Of a DNA stretch of 64,000 nucleotides, positions 12,866 through 51,288 are shown piece by piece. A model generated the notes under the pieces. It had not been told where the DNA came from, did no database searches, and saw only the letters and a list, made by a program, of their open reading frames with translations. Made by a program: the position numbers and the translations under genes. The DNA comes from Carcharhinus longimanus (lineage: Eukaryota). The DNA lies in assembly GCA_030264375.1 (NCBI GenBank), contig JASCQW010000168.1:12622197-12686196 (forward strand), read 5' to 3'. Numbering within the stretch: position 1 is the stretch's first letter; the number at the start of each line of letters is the position of its first letter.

Positions 12866-13078
<213 letters not shown>

Positions 13079-13659
13079 TCAAGGGAAGGACATAAATACA
13101 CGATGGGCGAATTGTACAACAGCTTAAAGAGACTGGAAACTGTAATCTCTGAACTTTTTGCTCTAATTTATTTCATATTTCAGTGTAAAGTGCAAAGCAC
13201 AAGCAAGCAAAGTAGAAGTTATTCTTGCTTTGGTAACCCCTGAACTCTGTCTTCAGAGTAAATCTAGCAAAAATAAACAGTTTGAAAGAAGGTTTGATCT
13301 GAAGTCTTGTTTTGATTTTTTCCCCCCCTCTTTTCAGCCTTCTTGTAAGAGCTGTGGAAAGAACTGTCAATCAACATGACAGAGGCTGATGAATAGGCTC
13401 AAGCTGCAGAAATGAACTGCAAGCAAAATACTATGGAAACAGCTGCAAGTACAGAACAGTGAAGTCAAAGGGCAAGAGATACTCTGTGAAAATAATAATC
13501 GTTAAAAATAAATTAGAAGGACACAACTAAGGCAGCCAACTTCAATCATAGCCAGCAAAAGAAAGACACTGACACTGGAGAAATCTCTCTCAGCCAAATG
13601 AAAAGAAGAACTGATGAGCGAAGAGAAACTGTGGACAAAAGGAGAAAGGGGCTGCTTAC

Positions 13660-13743
13660 CCAACTCAGTTATCATTGGTATGTTGGCTCCAATGTTTTTT
13701 TCCTGACTGAATGAAACCAAAGGGAGCAATTTGCCAGGTTTAA
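13660..13743 (-). CDS. KCNMA1: Alternative cassette exon (Slo27/Ca27 equivalent), 84 nt, 28 aa: (V)KPGKLLPLVSFSQEKNIGANIPMITEL
   Basis: Within ORF 13502..13819; resembles the mammalian insert AKPGKLPLVSVNQEKNSGTHILMITEL as recalled; acceptor ctcattcattattag|TT, donor TTGG|gtaagc; phase 1-1, frame-preserving; sits directly before the calcium-bowl exon. Confidence 0.92.
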
Positions 13744-16700
13744 CTAATAATGAATGAGAAATTGGTAAACAGGAGAGTACAAAGACATAAGAAAGAGAAC
13801 ATTCAGGTAATACGTTCAAGAGGCACCAAAATTAGAGAACCAGTTCATTAAATATTTACCATTCCAAGAAACAGTTTCTAAGAACAGGTTTTAATTAAAT
13901 AGGTAACAATGAAAAAACGCTTAAGCATATATTAAAGTAACAGTAAAGGTTTCTTGAACTCTTTAGGAACCACCTTTATATGTCTGTTGGTCATTGGGAA
14001 AGGTTAATTTGTACAATTGTTTTTCCAATTTTCTCTTTTCCTTGAAGGCATCATGACACTTCCCACCTTACAGTATCTCACCCAAGTGGCACTTCATTGT
14101 TGAACTTGCCTGTTAATTCTGATCCTGCTTTCATTAAAGTCAATACAAGAGGCTTTGGAGAATGACCAGGGGCAGAGATACTGCCCAACTTTTCTCCTTC
14201 CTAATCATGTCAGCTGAAATTAACTGACGATACAAACCAGGAGGGCCGTTGGGATTTTTCTGCTCTGTACGAGTCTACTGGCAATATAATCACCAGGGTC
14301 TTTTTTCACCCACCAACACCACCGCCCTGCCCCCCTCCCTCCCCCTGCACCCCCCCAACTCCCCCACCACACTTCAGGAAATACAATACTTTTACAGAAA
14401 GCGCTTGTTGTCCTTGAAAGAAAAACTTCAAGAAGTTATTATTATGAAAATTACCATTGTCAGTTAGTTTCTGTCAGCAGAAATCACACATCACGTATGT
14501 ATAAACAACCCCTGCCAAAAAGCGCAATATTTAATAGTCAGGTGTTCAGTGACTTGCTTCGCTACTGAGAATACAGATTGTGTGCGTCAGTTTGTGAACT
14601 TGAGAAAAATACCATGCATGCATTCACAGAGTGTGAATATTTTGGGTCAGGAATGTGCTATTTATTGTCCACACAATGGAGACAGCTCAGGGCTCAAGTT
14701 GGAGAATGATTAAGTAACGGTAGACTCATCGTAGGAAAACATGCAGAGGCCAGGACACTCATCTCTGCTTACCAAAGGAAATCTTCTGCTTTGACAGAGA
14801 GATGCTTGGCTCACGTGTCTGGGCGAGTAATTAATTTTATTTCTTCAGTTCAGGTGCCTCCTGGCTGAAGTTCAACATGGAATAGAGTGCCAACCTGAAA
14901 TGTATTGGTGCTTGTGGCTGATGCCAGCTGAAGAGATGTCTGATGAGACACTAATGTTCTCCTTTTATACATTTTGGAAAACCTCTCCAACAATGTGGAC
15001 AAGATTTTCTTTATTTGATCACACACTGAACTGTACGATATCCTATTATATGTCACAATGAAATGATAATTGAACAGTCACTTCATAAGTAATATTTGTT
15101 TGTGATTCAGATTAAGATGGCAGCCTTACTTGATTGGCCACATTGCTGCACATCATAAAACACAAATTTCTCTTTAGATTCAACAGGTGGCTTTCTTCAG
15201 AATTCTTCTAGTGCGGGATGAAATATTAAACTCACTGAACATTGTCAACGTCCTCGAGTGCACACGCAATCCCATTACTCCAACTTGAACACATTTTGTC
15301 AAATGTGCAGTTGTCTGCCATGGAAAGAAGGTTGTTTCGAGGCTCTTACTGTTTTAGTTATGGGCAACAGGCAGTGCATTAATATTGCTGCACAGCATCC
15401 AAATGCAGCATTGATCAGAGATGAAAAAGTAGCTCCCATTTTAATGTTATCAAACCAGGTGAGAAATCTTCTGCAGCTCACTGGAGTGTGACAACAGCAA
15501 TTTGATGTCATTTAACATGTCTGCAATTTTTGACAGGTGACAGGACCTGACGTCATCTCAATCATGTAAGGCGGAGATGAGTATAAATGCTGAAGCAAAA
15601 AAGCGAATAGATTTTGTTTCAAGTTGTTTCTGCACATGCAATCACAAACAAAATATATATTGAAGTTTGTGAGTTGTGACAAAATGACTCGGGCTACCAA
15701 AGAATAGTGACATAAATACCGTGTGCGACAGGAAAGAGTGTTATCTGCTACACAATGCATCATGTAATGCACCCATGGTGTACATCTGATCAGCTCATCA
15801 ATACGCTACAAGTGATCTGGATTGTAGATACAGAAGAACACTAAATCGATTAGAGTAAAAAGCAAAAGGGGAAAGTTCACATTGGTGGTAATTATAGTGC
15901 GGACAGTTCTTCAGTTGCAGCCAGCCTGTTAGAAGGTGGATATGAAGATATCTGTGCATTATAGAAAAGGGTCAATGTTAATTTTATCATATAGACAGGA
16001 TCGAAGTTTTGGAGAATAACAGAATCATTTTGCTTATAGGCACTGAGGTTCATTGGTGAATATGTTAGTAATATCATATTTCAGGATTCTTTGTCCATTT
16101 TCCTAGAGAATGGATCTAAATGTGAGTTTTTAAAGAAAAGTTTAGAGTTAAAGGTTTCTTTAAGAGGGTTAACTTTTCAGGACAACTCCATGCTGGGATA
16201 TGAATCTAAAATCAGATGAAAGGAAGTTAATGTGCTAGTCAGAAGTTGTTTTCCCTGGAGTTTAAACATTTAAACATGTTGGTGATTTGTCTCTGTAACA
16301 GATAAACGCTTCACACCTGTCCTGTTGAAAAGTTTTGTTTTGATTTCTTCCTGACAGGTAAGAAGGTTATTCTGATTTTTTTTATGGGAAGGGGATGCTG
16401 TATAGACAAAAGACTATGAAACACAAAAGAGAAAGTAAGTTTGGCCCAAGACTGTAGGATAGAATGTAAAGGAGTTATCATGTTAAATTTGAGTAAAATA
16501 GCTCAATGAAGTGAGTTCATTATTTTAATATGTCACTATACACAGCTAAGTTGAATCTGATTTTAACTTATTTCTATGTATGTTCACCACACTGTGAAAT
16601 AAAGCAGCTTAATGATTTAAACAAAGCTTTGCTTCACCTAATTTAACTTGGTCTTCTGTTGCCGAGAACTAAAGAAACACATGCAAAAAACATGACATCC

Positions 16701-19700
16701 AGTCCAAATTACAAAGGGGTTTGATTATTACATTGTGGATTAACGTACAAGACAGGGGAATGTTAATCAATTTCTATACAAGCTGGGTTCCCCAATTGCT
16801 TCTGGGAGTGTCTAAAGATAACTACAATAGGCTGCATTTATAACAATAAAATAAATTCAATCACAACTGTTGCGTCTCACTTCTTCAGTGTTTGATGAAG
16901 CTTTCATCCTCGTGAAATTGTCCCCAGAATGGAAGGTCTGACATGAATCCAGAGATTCTGCACAAGAGCTGGATATCGAGAGAGTTTCGAATAAAAGCAA
17001 AATAAGTCACGAACTAGGTTCAGCTCAAAGAATAACTTTGCTAGTTGGCTTGTGCTATAGATTGTCACCAAATGCAGGCGATTATGTTTCCGTTCAAGTA
17101 TTCAAATGGGAATTGGATCAATTACCAATTTAGTGAAGTTCAGAGCAGCGCAGGATCTGGTCAGGAAATGGCACAAGGAATATTGGCCAGATAAGGTCGC
17201 AAAATAGAGCCATGGGGATTGCCTGAACAAGCTAGTCTGGTTTCTACATTCTTAAGTACTTATCATAGATTGACAAAGTCAGGTTGCCATGCTTGATGTA
17301 TAATGTACAGCTTCATTGAGAATACAGTGAAGGAACGATTGATAAATCTGTCATATTCCAGTAAAAGTAAAGTTCATTCCTCATTGGTGCTTAGTATCCA
17401 ATTTTTAACTATTTTATTTAAGTCAGCTAAATAAAATAATTAGGAAGGAAAAGCTGCAATTGTTTTGAGGCACTATTCGGTTAATTAAGAGCATATTTCA
17501 TCTAACTACTGCTTTTCTGGGAATCAGACCTGAAGAATAGTATAAATAACTTTTTCCTGGGGATTCTAAATTAAGCATCTTTTCTCCAAGAATAACCTGC
17601 TGCTATTCCTTTGATATATATCGTCTACTGTGGCCTTTCATGTTGTTTCTTAATTAGGTTTAAGCAACCTTTCATCTTAACTTGATTTTCACTCTCTAAT
17701 TTTTTTAATGACTTTTGTGAGAGGCAGCTGCACTGGAATTGAACATGCTTCACTTTCAACAGGAGGCACTCCCAGGTCAAATGGAGCACAGGTAATGAGT
17801 TCAGAGGATGTACACCTCACTCTTATTTGACCAACAATGGGGGCTGACTGCCCATGTGCGATATTATAAAATCATAAACTCTCATGACTTCACCACATAA
17901 TTGCATGGAGTGAATTTCTCCCCACTATTATCCCAAAAAAGCATCATTACTGTTTTAGAACAGGGTTTCTGCTTCCTGAACTAACTACCGACATTGGGCA
18001 AAGACAGCTGGTATTGAATTATTGGAAGTTTTGGGGACACTGGAGCTGCGTGGAATTGCCCAAACTTATTTCACCTTCGGTCTGTTAAAACCAGCAAGAC
18101 AGAGACTTTCATCTCCTCAATGCAGAGTGGGTTTAAGCCTGGATCCAAAGATGAAATATTGGTCCAAAATTTGTCCCATGCCCTCTGACCTGGATATTTG
18201 TCCTCAGACGTTCAACTCAAATTAGATTCATGCTGCACACTGCTGAACACTGAGATGATAACAGCGGAGGACTGGGGTGTTGGTGAGTGATGGTACTAAG
18301 GGCTAAGTTTTGCTGGTCTCTGGGTGGCAGGAGGTTTGTATGGGGGTGCGAGGGGTTGTGATAGGAAGTTAAAATGCCACAAAGCTGCATTGGGAGGGCT
18401 CCTGTTACTGAACCTCTAAACAATTCACTAACCCTATGGAGGGAACCTCAAAGTGATTTCCCTTTGAGAGGGGTGGGAGTTACCCCCCAGCCACTGGGGT
18501 CTGCCTGCCTGCCTGGGCCCAGCAGAGAAAACAATTACCTCCTTCCCCTGTGCGAGCATCTCAAAATGGATATGTCCTCTCATTTTTCTTGCAGCCTGAA
18601 CAGTAGCTACCTCTCTGCCTATCTGATTGGGTTGACAGTGTGGAGAGCCAGCCCCACTAGACGTTGGACTTGGTAGTGGCCAATTAAGAAGACAGTGCCA
18701 GGAAGATTGCAACCTTGAGCCACACATTTTGTTCCAAGACCGGTATTTACCCCTTGCTAATAAAATTCCAACCTAAACGTTTATTCCCTTAATCAGTTAC
18801 ATTCAAGGTCAGAGAGAAACACACTGAATAATAGAGAAGGAAGTCCGGTGAATTTGACAAGAGGTACAAGATCAATTTAATACACTAGAGCAATAAAGGA
18901 ACAAAAGAAAAATTAGATTGGTGAAGAAAACACTGAAGGGAAAAGTAATGAAAAGGTAGAATGGTCAAAATATCTCTAGGAACAATTTTCCACCGTGAGG
19001 TCGAGACTTCACAAATTCAACTGTTCCCTTTCTGAGTGTCCAAAGTTGAGTTTCATGTTTGGGCCAGAAAATCCCCCATTCTTATTGCTGTGGAGTTGCA
19101 GTCCTAACCTTCTGTAGCAAATTTAAATCAGACATGCGGCGCAGTGTCTTGTTGACTTGTTCCCACTTTGTGAGGCTAATGGTGCAATTTGAGGTGATTT
19201 GCTACTCATGGCACCTCTCTTTTCACCGCAAATTGCTGGGTCATTTATGCACTAATAACTGCGTGCACCTTATTTTTCCAACAAAATCTGGGCCAATGCT
19301 ACTCGCTATGCTACCTAGGCACCAGCTCATTAATGCAAACACTCCAGAAGCTATTGTACCTTTAAAAGAAAGTCAAAAGGTTACTGTATGTTTTCATCAT
19401 GATAACCAGGTTCCACACATGAAGGGAAAAAGGATTATTACAATTATAGCAGATTTCATATGACATGTTTAATATATCCTAGACAGAGCCTTTATCATAA
19501 CTAACGACAATTATCTCCTAGTGAACTTGCAGTAATCATGTCACGGTTGTTAACCTCTGGTGTAAATACTGACATAAGTGACTGCACTTCAAAAAAGTAG
19601 TTCATTGTGTGAAACACTTAAGAGACATTTCAATGTGGGAAGGTTTTAAACGCAAGTCTTATTACTGTTGAGTTGAAATGAATCAAGGATATGAAGCATT

Positions 19701-20199
19701 GTGTCAGTGCCAGAACTGAAATCAGGGAGTATAGAGGTGAAATATTCAGGGATTTCTATTTGGTTATGGTAGGATTGCAACACAGTTCATATCAAAAGAA
19801 CAATATTATGTTAACAATCAGTTTGCAAGAGGTTAAACTCACTAACACAGCTCCGATTAATATGAATTAGATCTCGATGAACCTGCTAGTGAAGTGTTTC
19901 TTCCTCCACACAACTTAGTTTCACTCCCATGACTGTAGGGTTAATATTTCTGGGGTCCAGACCACCAGAACACAATGACAGTTCACATTGGTCATTCACT
20001 CTTATCTCTGCCCTAACCTAAGCTCAAATATTCTTTGTTCAATATGGTATTGGAAGATCAGCAGTTTAGTGATCCCATATTCCTGAAACGCTGGTTCATA
20101 ACAAGTTTTTGGAAGCATTGTCACAAATTATGATCTTACAATCATAATATCCAATATTCTCATGCTTATACTGAGCCTGTTTCCATGTCACGATATTCT

Positions 20200-20532
20200 T
20201 GCCTATCCCTGTCTGTGTAATCTCCTCTAACCCAATAATCCTTCAAGATATCGGTTATCATCTAAGTCTAGCCTCTTGAACTTCCCTTATTTTACTTGCT
20301 CCATCACTGGTGGTTATAATTTCTGCTGCTCAGGCCCTAAACTCCTGTCTACTCATCTACCTCGCATTCCTGCTTTAAGGTACACCTTAAAACCTTTGAG
20401 CTAGTTTTTAGTCACCTGACTTAATATCTCCTCATGTTGTTCAGTGTCATATTCTGTTTTATAATATACCTATGAAATGCCTTGGGTATATTATTGGGTT
20501 AAAGGCACTATATAAACATATGCTTTTGTTAT
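20200..20532 (+). mobile_element. L2-like LINE 3' end
   Basis: cctatccctgtctgtgtaatctcct...ccttaaaacc...ttaaaggcactatataaa...ttgttattg. Confidence 0.65.
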
Positions 20533-22134
20533 TGCAGTCGAAAATCCACTCATGCACTACTGGTCCGTCTTAAAAAACTCTGAAAAAAGTTACACCTTGT
20601 TGAAAAGTTACTGCTTGCTAAAAAGTTACATTTAGTTGAATGAGGTGTAATTGGGCTTTTGGTAACATACTAATTTTATAAATCACTCCTAAACACCCTC
20701 ACTGGCCCTGAAAAGCTAATTTTACACAATGCAATGTCAAATTTATCCACTATGATTAAAACATGACATTTTTAAAACAAAATGTTTTTCTGTTTAATTA
20801 AACTTGTTTATCTTTGTTTTAGCTTTTTTCTTGATGTATTCATAACTTATTTCACTATGTGATTGGTTGCTTATGGTTGGCTATGCTGGTGATTGGCTAG
20901 CAACAACTAGCATCCACTGTCGCCAATTGGTTCAATTTCCAACTGGCAACTGGATTCAACTATTGAACTGGTTTTCCCACGTTAAGACATCCCTTTCACT
21001 TGAAGCCAGATTGAAATGGTCAGTGGAAAAGGGCAAAATCCCACCACAAAGGTTACCCATCTTTTGTTGGAAGCTTTCTTGAAAATCAGTGGCAAGCACC
21101 CTTCCTCACAGACCACAAGATCTAGGACATTGGAACATCAGTAAACAAGTTGCAGATGTTGTAGTAGCACTGACTGAAGTTAAAAAGATGAGTGTTCTTC
21201 AGGTTCAACAAAATCTATTTTAAATACACAACATTACTGAGGCTACAACTACATTTGGTCAGCACTGCACTTCCCAACCCAATTTGTTAAAGATAAATGC
21301 GTGACAGGGTATTGAGTCCTAATGACTAAGGATCGTTCATAGGTCTGTGCTGAATTTGCTGATCTCAGCTAGGATGATTGAGGTTGTCCATAGCATCCTT
21401 TGGCTAAGGGAAGAAAATAAATTGGCATGGTTTGACCCTGAGACTTTCTAGGTCTAAATGACTCAGTACCGTTTCCCACATTTATCCACAGGCCATTAGG
21501 GGTGAGCAGACAGTGCTGACTGGGCTAGCAATGTCTTCAATAATGTTCTAAAGTAATATGGATTTCCTTGAGAAATGAACAGTTGTCTTTTGACCTTTGA
21601 TCAGTCAGGTTGCAACAATCTGTACATAAGCATTACAGCAGAAGCCCTTGAGCACAATGGATCTGAATTCTGTCCATATCATCGAACAATTAGCTAGAGT
21701 GGGAATGCCAGCCATTGACCAACATGTCTGTGCTGCAGTCCCCAAAGGTTTCAGACTTGCATTTCCATTACATTTGACCCAGGAATCTACAGCTACCAGC
21801 TCCGGTTTCAACTAGAATAGCTTTTTGTATGAAATCATTGCTGTTAGGTTTTAGGAAACATTCTCAAATCAAGCATTAAGAATATTGAGATAATAAATAA
21901 CTACTTATTTTACAACATATAATTTACAGAGCTTCACTGGTAAGTTCTGTTGTGAGGTAAAGCTAAAGCAAGGTAAATCAGAAGATAAAAAAGCCAGAGT
22001 TTTTAAAGCTTTGCTCCCATTAAGTAGGGAATCTAAATTCCCAAAATGTAATCTATTGTCTCATGTTATTTATTGGACCAGGCAGAAGTAAAATTCAAGA
22101 GTACACCTTTTTTGCTATGAACAGCTTCCTGTTA

Positions 22135-22700
22135 AATCATTCACATGTGGGTGTCACTGATCAGGCCAGTATTTATTGCCAAAGGCATCTTTGACAATTC
22201 ACCAATGCTTCTGTGACAGTATCTTCCAAACCCACGACGCTCACCGCCGAGTGAAGGGCAACAAGTGCATGGAAACCACCAAGATCCTCTCCACATCGTT
22301 CTGACTTGGAAATAATCAACATTCCTTCACTGATGCTGGGTTAAAATCCCTAAACACCCCTGAGAATGTGGTGATGAGCCACCCTATTAAACTGCTGCAT
22401 TCCGAGTAGAGAAGGTATACCCACAGTTCAGCTTTGTAGGATTTTGACCTAGTGTCAATGAGGTACTGGCAGTATCTTTCTAAGGCAGAATAATGTGCAA
22501 CTTGGAGAGGAACTCATGGTTGGCAGTGTTTCCATGCACCTACTGCCCTTATCCTAGGTGGTAGAGGTCACAGGTCTGGAAGGTGCTGTCACAGGAGCCT
22601 TGGTGAGTTGCTGCAAAGCATCCTGTATGCAGCATGTGCTGTAGCCACACTTCAAGATGAAAGGCATGACTGTATAAGGTTATGGATGGGGTGCCAATCA
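22135..22700 (-). mobile_element. 3' end of a CR1-supergroup LINE (family not assigned) with an oppositely oriented fragment of the same family nested at ~22200-22360
   Basis: Tail tcattcacatgtggg...tttattgcc; body ggattttgacc...ggaaggtgctgtc...ggggtgccaatca; 22213-22352 is a diverged reverse complement of 22437-22592. Confidence 0.65.
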
Positions 22701-22947
22701 TTTATAGACAGAGTATGTGTGTGGCTTTCCTGACAATTTCCTTTCAGTAGAATTAACTTTTGCAAATACCAGGTAAGGAAGGAGTCGCTGAGGCATGAAA
22801 CCTAATTTATAAGCTTNNNNNNNNNNGTTTGTGACAAATGGCAAATATGTCAAATGACTGACATTGCAACATGACTAATATACACCATATTCCCGACTAA
22901 CGGGTTAAAACAAACATAGCCGAGAGGAGGAAATCTGACCTTCTTAC

Positions 22948-23061
22948 CTAGCTCAGTCATCATTGGGATGTTGGCCCCAGTGGTGACAGAGGTCTGTCGG
23001 ACCAGACCATGGACTGGGCTGTTGTCTGGTGAAGCTCTGTCCATTCCTGGAGGTGTGAATC
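22948..23061 (-). CDS. KCNMA1: BK channel exon, 114 nt: (G)[37 protein letters not shown]
   Basis: Within ORF 22850..23122; acceptor ttctcattccag|GA, donor CTAG|gtaaga; phase 1-1; includes the RQxS motif corresponding to the mammalian RQPS PKA site. Confidence 0.97.
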
Positions 23062-33557: not shown

Positions 33558-34735
33558 AAAAGAACAAAGAACAAAGAAAAGTACAGCACAGGAATAGGCC
33601 CTTTGGCCCCCCCAAGCTTGTGTCGATCATGATGCCCTAACTAAAAAAACCATCTGCCCTTACTCGATCCATATCCCTCTATTTCTTCCACATTCATGGA
33701 TCCATCCAGGTGCCGCTTAAAATATTACTAATGTGCCTGCTTCCACCACATCCTCTGGCAGCACATACCAGGCACCCATCACTCTCTGCATGAAAAACCT
33801 GCCCCACACATCTCCCTTAAAATTTCTCCCTGCGCCTCGAACCTGTAATTGACACTTCCACCCTTGGAAAAAGCCTCTGATTATCCACCCTGTCCATGCC
33901 TCTCATAATTTTGTAGACCCCTATCAGGTTTTCCCTCAGCCTCCATCTTTCTAGTGAAAACAATCCTAGTTTAATCAACCTCTCCTCACAGCCAACACCC
34001 TCAAGCCCATTTGGTGAACATTCTTTGCACTCTTTCCAAAGCTTCCACGTCCTTCTGATAGTGTGGTAACCAAAACTGCATGCAATGCTCCAAAGGCAGC
34101 CTAACCAAGGTTTTATATAGCTGCAACATGATTTCCCAACTCCTGTACTCAATGCCCCAATTAATGACGGTAAACATGCCATATGCCTTCTTAGTCACCT
34201 TGGTGACCTGTGTTGCCAATTTTAGGGAAATGTGGACCTGCATGCCCAGATCCCTCTGTATTTTAATGTTCCTAAGGGTTTTGCCATTTGCAGTACAATT
34301 CATACCTAAATTTGATCCCCCAAAATGCATCACCTTGCATTTGTCCAGATTAAACTCCATCTGCCACTCTGTGCCCAAGTCTCCAATCTATCTATATACT
34401 GTTGTATCCTCTGACAATCCTCAGCACAATCAGCAACTCCACCAATCTTCGTGTCATCTGCAAACTTACCAATCAGACCACCCATATTTTCCTCCAGATC
34501 ATTTATATATGCTACAAACAACAAAGATCCCAGCAGTGATCCCTGCAGAGCACCACTAGCTACAGATCTCCATTCTGAAAAACACCCTTCCACCACCACT
34601 CTCTGTTGTCTAATAACCAAGCCAGTTCTGTGTCCATCCGACCAACCTACCCCGAATCCCATGCGATTTTATTTTTTGTACCAGTCTGCTATGTGGGACC
34701 TTGTCAAACACCTTACTAAAGTTCACATGAACCAC
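33558..34735 (-). mobile_element. CR1/HER1-like LINE, 5'-truncated and frameshifted (RT C-terminal half plus 3' UTR)
   Basis: ORFs give FSKVFDKVPHSRL, SGALQGSLLGSLLFVAYINDL..IGKFADDTK (catalytic FADD), WQMEFNLDKCKVMHFG, LGLFSLERWRLR; tandem tail (aaagaac)n at ~33558-33578. Confidence 0.95.
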
Positions 34736-34744
34736 ATAAAAAGG

Positions 34745-34975
34745 AACATAGTTTATTACAGAAAACAAATTAAAACCAATGCCATGGTGTACACAGAATA
34801 GTGCCTGCCTGGGACTCCAGTGTAGCAGGTCCAGTCCTGGGCCTGCCTTATAAAGGGCCCAGGTAATGAATTCAAGCTGGGCAGACCATTGCCTGTTACC
34901 AGGAGAACTCATAGTCAATAAGCCCTACAGGCAGATCAATCACTGATCCCCATGGACCTGATGGGGATTATCACA
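34745..34975 (-). mobile_element. Possible LTR fragment adjoining the CR1 copy
   Basis: Minus strand begins TGTGATAATCCCC and contains TTATAA and AATAAA; weak evidence only. Confidence 0.3.
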
Positions 34976-44799: not shown

Positions 44800-45520
44800 A
44801 TTGATGGTCCTCTTGTAGTTATACTGGTGCACTTCTATTTCCCTTCACAATTCCATTTTCAGTCTCTACAAAATTGCAGGTTGTGTCTTTTTCCCCAGTG
44901 CTTGGCCTTCTCGATTTTGGTCACAAGTCCAGACTGGTTGAAGTTCTGGTAAATCGTGCATTCTATGGCACTGATTATAGTTTCTGGTTTGATTTGCAGG
45001 ATAAACATCCCCCACCTCCACCCCCCACCCCACTTGCTCTCTGTTGTTTTGAGACTTGGCATAAACACGTATGGAACAACAGAAAGTTGAGTTTGTTACT
45101 GTCTTCCCATCAGAAGTTTTGACATGGAAATGAATATACCATCAGAGGTTTCCTTTGCTCATGGTGATGGTCAGACCGGCGATGCAGCTCAAAATCATTC
45201 CTTCATTATTTTGAGATCCCTAGTCATCAAATGGAATTCAGCTCTCTAACACGACACTTTCTAATGTCTCTGGTGTATTCTCTGAAGGATCTCGAGTCTA
45301 AGAACTCCAGATGTGAACAATCTCTCATCATAAATCAATAAGTCATCCACAACACTGAGATGTCTTCTTTGCTTGAAGTATTGTTTCAGGATAAGATTAT
45401 TTGGAACATATTCTGGCCATCCATTTTTGCAGTATTCCCAAATTTTAACATACTCTTCATCTGATTTTGTGCCTTTCAGATGTTATTCAGCTTCTGTGTT
45501 GTTGCTGATAGGAAGTTTGT
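44800..45520 (-). mobile_element. Decayed Ty3/Gypsy pol (integrase region) fragment, internally deleted
   Basis: Manual translation: SDEEYVKIWEYCKNGWPEYVPNNLILKQYFKQRRHLSVVDDLLIYDERL..LRLEILQRIHQ..KCR (H2C2 zinc-binding region) and downstream HDLPELQP.VW..DQNREGQ..VETENGIVKGNRSA; stops and frameshifts present. Confidence 0.75.

Positions 45521-50982: not shown

Positions 50983-51288
<306 letters not shown>

Follow-up and report, generated by a model that had tools for sequence, protein, structure and literature searches.

The optional exon that lies directly before the calcium bowl of the BK channel is the closest described system to the locus treated here. Two forms, Zero and +27, have been described at this site (PMC4055454; PMC3989361), and the insert is credited, as cited in PMC4055454, with faster activation above 5 uM calcium, conductance and voltage dependence being unchanged. 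Clones from skate ampullae are reported to carry an 'exon 29' directly before the calcium bowl, and inclusion of Kcnma1 exon 24a is described by Jelen et al. (2007; PMC2014790) as higher in brain in both chicken and zebrafish.

A second relevant system is that of tandem duplicated exon substitutions (Martinez-Gomez et al., 2022; PMC9741552), which are ancient, involve consecutive exons and share a homologous stretch of at least seven residues. The predicted outcome given there is that a homologous segment is swapped within a folded domain, and KCNMA1 is listed with a homologous-exon event. The exon studied here is already well known, as is the origin of alternative exons by duplication; the explanation proposed here, namely a duplicate origin together with a strand swap, is plausibly new.

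Results

The window, meaning the whole 64,000-nucleotide stretch of DNA that was analysed, is part of KCNMA1 (Slo1, BK alpha) from an elasmobranch, with the gene on the minus strand, and its exons match elasmobranch proteins with identities of up to 100%. Exons A and B both possess AG acceptors, GTAAG donors and phase 1 at both ends, and no further exon lies between them in annotated proteins. The features referred to below are:

51060..51252, minus strand: upstream RCK2 exon of KCNMA1, ending ...QANSQ with a phase-1 donor (5' boundary set by eye)
22948..23061, minus strand: the constitutive exon A (114 nt, phase 1-1), encoding a disordered RCK2 loop and tail A (splice joints observed)
22948..22978, minus strand: tail A, ten residues plus the first base of the next codon, adjoined by the GTAAG donor
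13660..13743, minus strand: the cassette exon B, 28 codons in 84 nt, phase 1-1, Slo27/SS4 orthologue (splice joints observed)
13660..13690, minus strand: tail B (GANIPMITEL), the putatively duplicated segment, equal to the inferred ancestral tail and predicted to form the RCK2 strand of the A+B isoform
12902..13032, minus strand: calcium-bowl exon (splice joints observed)

KCNMA1 has another, mutually exclusive exon pair at S6/RCK1, which is not the pair of exons A and B. The open frames at 33720-34924 and 45264-45482, within a long intron, presumably resemble broken retroelement proteins. A high-copy repeat with very high contig depth in four runs occupies 22145-22680, 270-800 nt downstream of the exon A donor, and is probably a SINE or LINE fragment.

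Exon B is located between the FTPPG...TEL exon and the Slo1 calcium-bowl exon, and is homologous to a 27- or 28-residue insert in fish, frog, turtle and bird proteins and to the rat Slo27 insert in Table 1 of PMC3393747, with which it can be aligned by eye. This position and alignment bear out the assignment to the Slo27/SS4 cassette made in a preliminary description of the locus. Mouse exon 24a is likely the same exon.

The 3' ends of exons A and B are alike to the extent first reported, with 9/10 residues and 26/31 nt identical at the same donor phase, and 28/34 nt over a longer stretch. Four of the five nucleotide differences are synonymous (pS 0.60 over 6.7 synonymous sites, pN 0.04, Fisher p 0.006). 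Over the whole window and both strands, the second-best ungapped 31-nt match to the tail reaches 19/31; the tblastn E value is 6e-5 for the pair of tails and 0.48 for the next match; and when the donor-like sites of the minus strand, 97 in all, are compared with the tail, none but those of tails A and B exceeds 3/10. The mammalian tails given in the preliminary description, GVNIPIITEL for A and GTHILMITEL for B, proved correct (human A in PDB chains; rat B in Table 1 of PMC3393747), and are 6/10 identical by eye.

The similarity is limited to the final ~34 nt plus the donor, or about ten homologous codons. The heads of the two exons gave no alignment better than shuffles (p 0.82 for DNA, 0.60 for protein), and homology across the whole of both exons was rejected on this basis. 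Partial duplication, and duplication of a whole exon whose head has since diverged, predict the same outcome in these sequences and remain indistinguishable. Unrelated heads would also fit an exon B that arose de novo from intron, its tail having converged on that of exon A since the position before the calcium bowl accepts nothing but a strand-like end, and a strand requirement alone would indeed favour a hydrophobic-T-E-L ending. The identity extends, however, over GANIP, which is widely variable in distant homologues, and the donors of the two exons sit at an identical codon position. Similarity also peaks in early-branching lineages and is lowest in amniotes, which is the reverse of what convergence would give, and a de novo origin is considered extremely unlikely. 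The duplication origin put forward in the preliminary description is instead supported by the match itself, the shared donor codon and phase, and the single tail of invertebrates.

In invertebrates, GANVPMITEL is present as a single tail in Slo1 of a wasp (P0192) and of two sea-urchin species (P0198, P0341 and P0342), and GTNVPMITEL in that of a nematode (P0200); several other invertebrate tails have L at position 6. The sequence P0295 contains an apparent intron read-through after ...MIT, which suggests an insect-like gene with its intron two codons earlier than in vertebrates. Exons A and B were found together in elasmobranchs, bichirs, teleosts, frogs, turtles and birds. Identity between the two tails is 8-9/10 in elasmobranchs, 8/10 in bichir and two frogs, 7/10 in Danio, Megalops and Aldrovandia (kcnma1a-type) and 6/10 in turtles and birds. 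At the level seen in bichir and frogs, the likeness cannot be treated as a shark peculiarity. Two further teleost proteins, which have GTNIPMITEL in exon B, are likely products of the second copy of the gene in teleosts. Tail B retains the proline in frogs and in two teleost proteins.

Parsimony analysis of 17 vertebrate A/B pairs and three invertebrates placed GANIPMITEL at the duplication node, every site being resolved without a tie. The searches identified no sequence from cyclostomes, chimaeras, coelacanth, lungfish, amphioxus or tunicates. The reconstructed tail is the tail B of the window, and most B exons of sharks and rays have kept it unaltered. Together with the high identity between elasmobranch tails, this reconstruction supports the earlier proposal that elasmobranchs keep the ancestral tail, and the original tail form of an ancient duplication is likely still present in sharks and rays. 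Polarity is weak at position 6, however, since this site goes back and forth between M and I, as in exon A of Heptranchias, exon B of frogs and opossum exon A (supplement of PMC2014790); the paralogue described below has I, and several invertebrate tails have L. The opossum exon A in that supplement is unusually diverged, its tail ending in LPMITEL, and position 6 there appears able to switch back to M.

Judged on sequence, exon B is likely a tandem duplicate, either of the whole of exon A or of just its 3' portion including the donor, that arose before the jawed vertebrates diverged. The distribution of tails and the single-tail paralogue would make the duplication older than the split between sharks and bony fish, and either later than the paralogue split or lost in the paralogue.

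Gene conversion between the tails within the cartilaginous-fish lineage, rather than slow change, could give the same shark similarity after an old duplication. The four topologies compared, covering a single old duplication and lineage-specific conversion, tie at 16 steps, and elasmobranch exon A has M at position 6 as exon B does, where most bony-vertebrate A exons and the paralogue have I. Yet M at this position is already found in the invertebrate outgroup, an identity of 8/10 is also reached in bichir and frogs, and pS between the tails stands at 0.60. Additionally, in two related organisms exon A still has the bases specific to A (0 and 1 differences over 26 nt, by eye) and exon B shows no differences, which argues against recent conversion, although neither the high pS nor the copy-specific bases count against any but a recent event. 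Conversion is thus regarded as unlikely, and an old duplication followed by slow change of the elasmobranch tails is preferred.

A paralogue on contig C166 has a single tail, IPIITAL, followed by a phase-1 intron as in KCNMA1; the 9,951 bases examined (L009, 69 of them N) contained no further copy of the tail. It resembles a bamboo-shark 'alpha-1-like' protein, and we infer that it is Slo3-like. At L009:5163-5240 (C166, minus strand) and in neighbouring exons, this paralogue encodes an acidic stretch resembling a calcium bowl, FLDQEDRDDPETE. The KCNU1 proteins examined, from mammals and amphibians, have a degenerate stretch instead. The Slo3-like paralogue, going by this stretch, may retain calcium sensing.

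Splice joints were read in contigs from 7 of 22 listed runs, which come from several organisms and are given no tissue or RNA label. These contigs, which drop rare splice forms, are transcripts, because the GT-AG joints in them are spliced. The joint from exon B to the bowl exon is present in six of the seven runs (all but X7), that from A to B in three (X4, X9 and X10) and that from A to the bowl exon in three (X4, X7 and X10), with included and skipped forms occurring together in X4 and X10. The use of exon B in transcripts, as had been anticipated, is confirmed by the first two of these joints. Relative to the window, exon B shows 0-1 differences in five runs and the 131-nt bowl exon 1-9 (p 0.013 to 1.0, the comparisons not being independent).

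Wherever the upstream partner of exon B could be resolved in the contigs, it was either exon A (three runs) or unspliced intron. The exon at 51060 was found upstream of B in none of the four runs with a complete loose-end table; the loose ends upstream of B in these runs were the exon A tail (twice), intron (once) and a stop 5 nt upstream of the exon (once). In 469 proteins examined, exon A accompanies B in all 284 that contain B, and is present alone in 29. These proteins, which include the best 120 of 149 matches to one query and the best 120 of 1081 to another, are for the most part annotation models, a single species often contributing many isoforms. The second query contained part of tail A and supplied 119 of the 284; its best 120 matches were all from birds and turtles. 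One further protein search gave four matches, two from frogs and two from teleosts. With a query that included B and no part of A, exon A was present in all 120 proteins found.

The preliminary description had also allowed for use of the cassette alone, through a joint from 51060 to 13743. Such a joint would keep the frame, the upstream exon having a phase-1 donor, and mutually exclusive use of A and B in some tissue, in which the loop and its serine/threonine motifs, among them the putative phosphorylation motif RQTS of the preliminary description, would be replaced, is made easier to entertain by the loss of rare variants from contigs and by runs whose tissues are not given. Against this stand the complete lack of B without A in the 284 proteins, including the 120 found by the A-free query, the lack of any such joint in the contigs, and the four loose-end tables, in which no end matches the 51060 exon. 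The dog and rat reports consulted likewise give only Zero and +27 forms at the site. Cassette-alone use was thus not borne out, and mutually exclusive splicing is considered very unlikely; inclusion of B after A, or its skipping, is the reading carried forward.

According to the study on Nova-regulated neuronal cassette exons (PMC2014790), the YCAY cluster of mouse is situated in the constitutive exon on the 5' side. The supplement identifies this exon by its sequence as exon A, and by eye the cluster partly overlaps the I-I-T codons of the exon A tail. The window differs from mouse in that its exon A has no YCAY in the last 30 nt; two are present, at 22986 and 22983. The M-M codons of shark exon A (22948-22986, minus strand) abolish the tail YCAYs, leaving the two upstream. 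Splicing control may have helped to drive the M-to-I change in bony vertebrates. Downstream of exon B, YCAY motifs reach up to 5 per 100 nt (mean 1.8, 99th percentile 6); two lie just before the exon B acceptor (13757 and 13753) and seven at 13489-13357. No Rbfox motif (TGCATG) was found around exon B within 13033-14300. The intron flanks of exon B (13171-16260) have matching stretches in contigs from other organisms (X4, X5 and X7), which suggests conserved regulatory blocks in these introns.

In A-only channels, tail A is directly upstream of the calcium-bowl segment, and in the A+B isoform only tail B adjoins the bowl. An AlphaFold monomer model (123 sequences, mean pLDDT 79) was obtained for the A+B protein P0001, of 1152 residues, in which the A, B and bowl segments are those of the window save for the split first codon of A; an earlier model built from 41 similar A+B rows alone had a pLDDT of 27 and was discarded. 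In the retained model, a strand at 892-896 is formed by MITEL of tail B and is followed by a helix at 899-904, and residues 861-887 have pLDDT below 50, with tail A looped out. The modelled gating ring agrees with human 6v5a (rmsd 1.9 A, TM 0.91), and against full channels the rmsd is about 20 A, the membrane part being misplaced in the monomer as folded. In the underlying alignment, tail B received the deep ITEL columns and tail A those for GANIPM; this register favours tail B, making the strand model partly circular, and it is taken as support rather than proof.

The preliminary description had pictured both tail copies leading into the calcium bowl. The prediction does not agree with this, giving the strand to B and leaving A disordered. 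The two homologous tails are instead predicted to share one structural slot, which the model fills with tail B, as the alignment register favours. Of 27 matched sequences in the PDB, none appears to span the insert, and for mammalian Slo1 those alignments extending as far as the insert are interrupted at 867-869; exon B alone returned no PDB matches, a weak result with so short a query.

Discussion

The evidence above suggests how an apparently simple insertion might alter the channel. In A-only channels, tail A would form the beta-strand before the calcium bowl. In A+B channels, tail B would take over this strand and the tail of exon A would loop out, the repeat permitting a shift of register through which ~27 extra residues would join an existing disordered loop and not be wedged between strand and bowl. 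The insertion would then act as a hidden strand substitution combined with a longer loop. The swap from tail A to tail B changes one residue in sharks (M to I) and four in amniotes. Such a takeover would explain the strong selection on tail B, and it would also explain why the activation rate is reported to change without a change in conductance or voltage dependence. On the strength of the model, the strand-swap mechanism is considered likely.

Taken as a whole, it is held with considerable confidence that exon B is the Slo27/SS4 cassette, that it is spliced after exon A or skipped, that it likely arose by duplication before the jawed vertebrates diverged, and that its tail is predicted to displace the strand of tail A. 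More cautiously, we lean towards the wider view that the Slo27 'insertion' amounts to a cryptic homologous substitution in every jawed vertebrate, including humans, the co-included duplicate tail displacing the beta-strand of its parent beside the calcium bowl. If this is true, the difference between isoforms would consist of exchanged core residues plus a longer loop, and catalogues of duplicated-exon substitutions would miss such cases, as they require mutually exclusive splicing. It would offer a concrete and testable structural reading for a long-known BK isoform that shows higher inclusion in brain in chicken and zebrafish and is reported in skate electroreceptors. The residues of the cassette tail, and not those of the constitutive tail, are predicted to pack beside the calcium bowl in the A+B isoform, and variants in tail A or tail B would, if so, have isoform-specific effects. 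A genome-wide screen is also suggested, for cassette exons whose end repeats the end of the neighbouring exon.

With regard to novelty, no description of exon B as a duplicate, or of the strand-swap mechanism, was found in the passages returned by full-text literature searches, which include PMC9741552, PMC4055454, PMC10486799, bioRxiv 274449, PMC3393747, PMC2014790, PMC12221596, PMC8149700 and PMC3989361; key work on BK splicing, including King et al. (2016) on skate, lies outside this set. The shared ITEL ending is easily noticed, and a prior mention of the duplication is therefore quite possible. Fodor and Aldrich are said to have reviewed the evolution of BK splice sites.

The mammalian Slo27/SS4 exon of KCNMA1 (C4) occupies the same slot, between exon A and the bowl exon, and is likewise used as Zero or insert. 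Shark exon B has 28 codons where mammalian Slo27 has 27, and its tail resembles that of exon A at 9/10 residues as opposed to 6/10. In the literature consulted Slo27/SS4 is presented as a plain insertion and is not treated as a duplicate or a substitution.

Compared with tandem duplicated exon substitutions, as these are set out in PMC9741552, exons A and B share a homologous stretch longer than the minimum of seven residues (9/10 residues, 26/31 nt), but differ in that the two exons are not confined to distinct transcripts, exon A being present in every B-containing protein examined (284/284) and joined to B in the contigs. With B always co-included with A, the swap would occur in folding and not in splicing. 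The A/B event is consequently not classed as a tandem duplicated exon substitution, although it is predicted to work like one.
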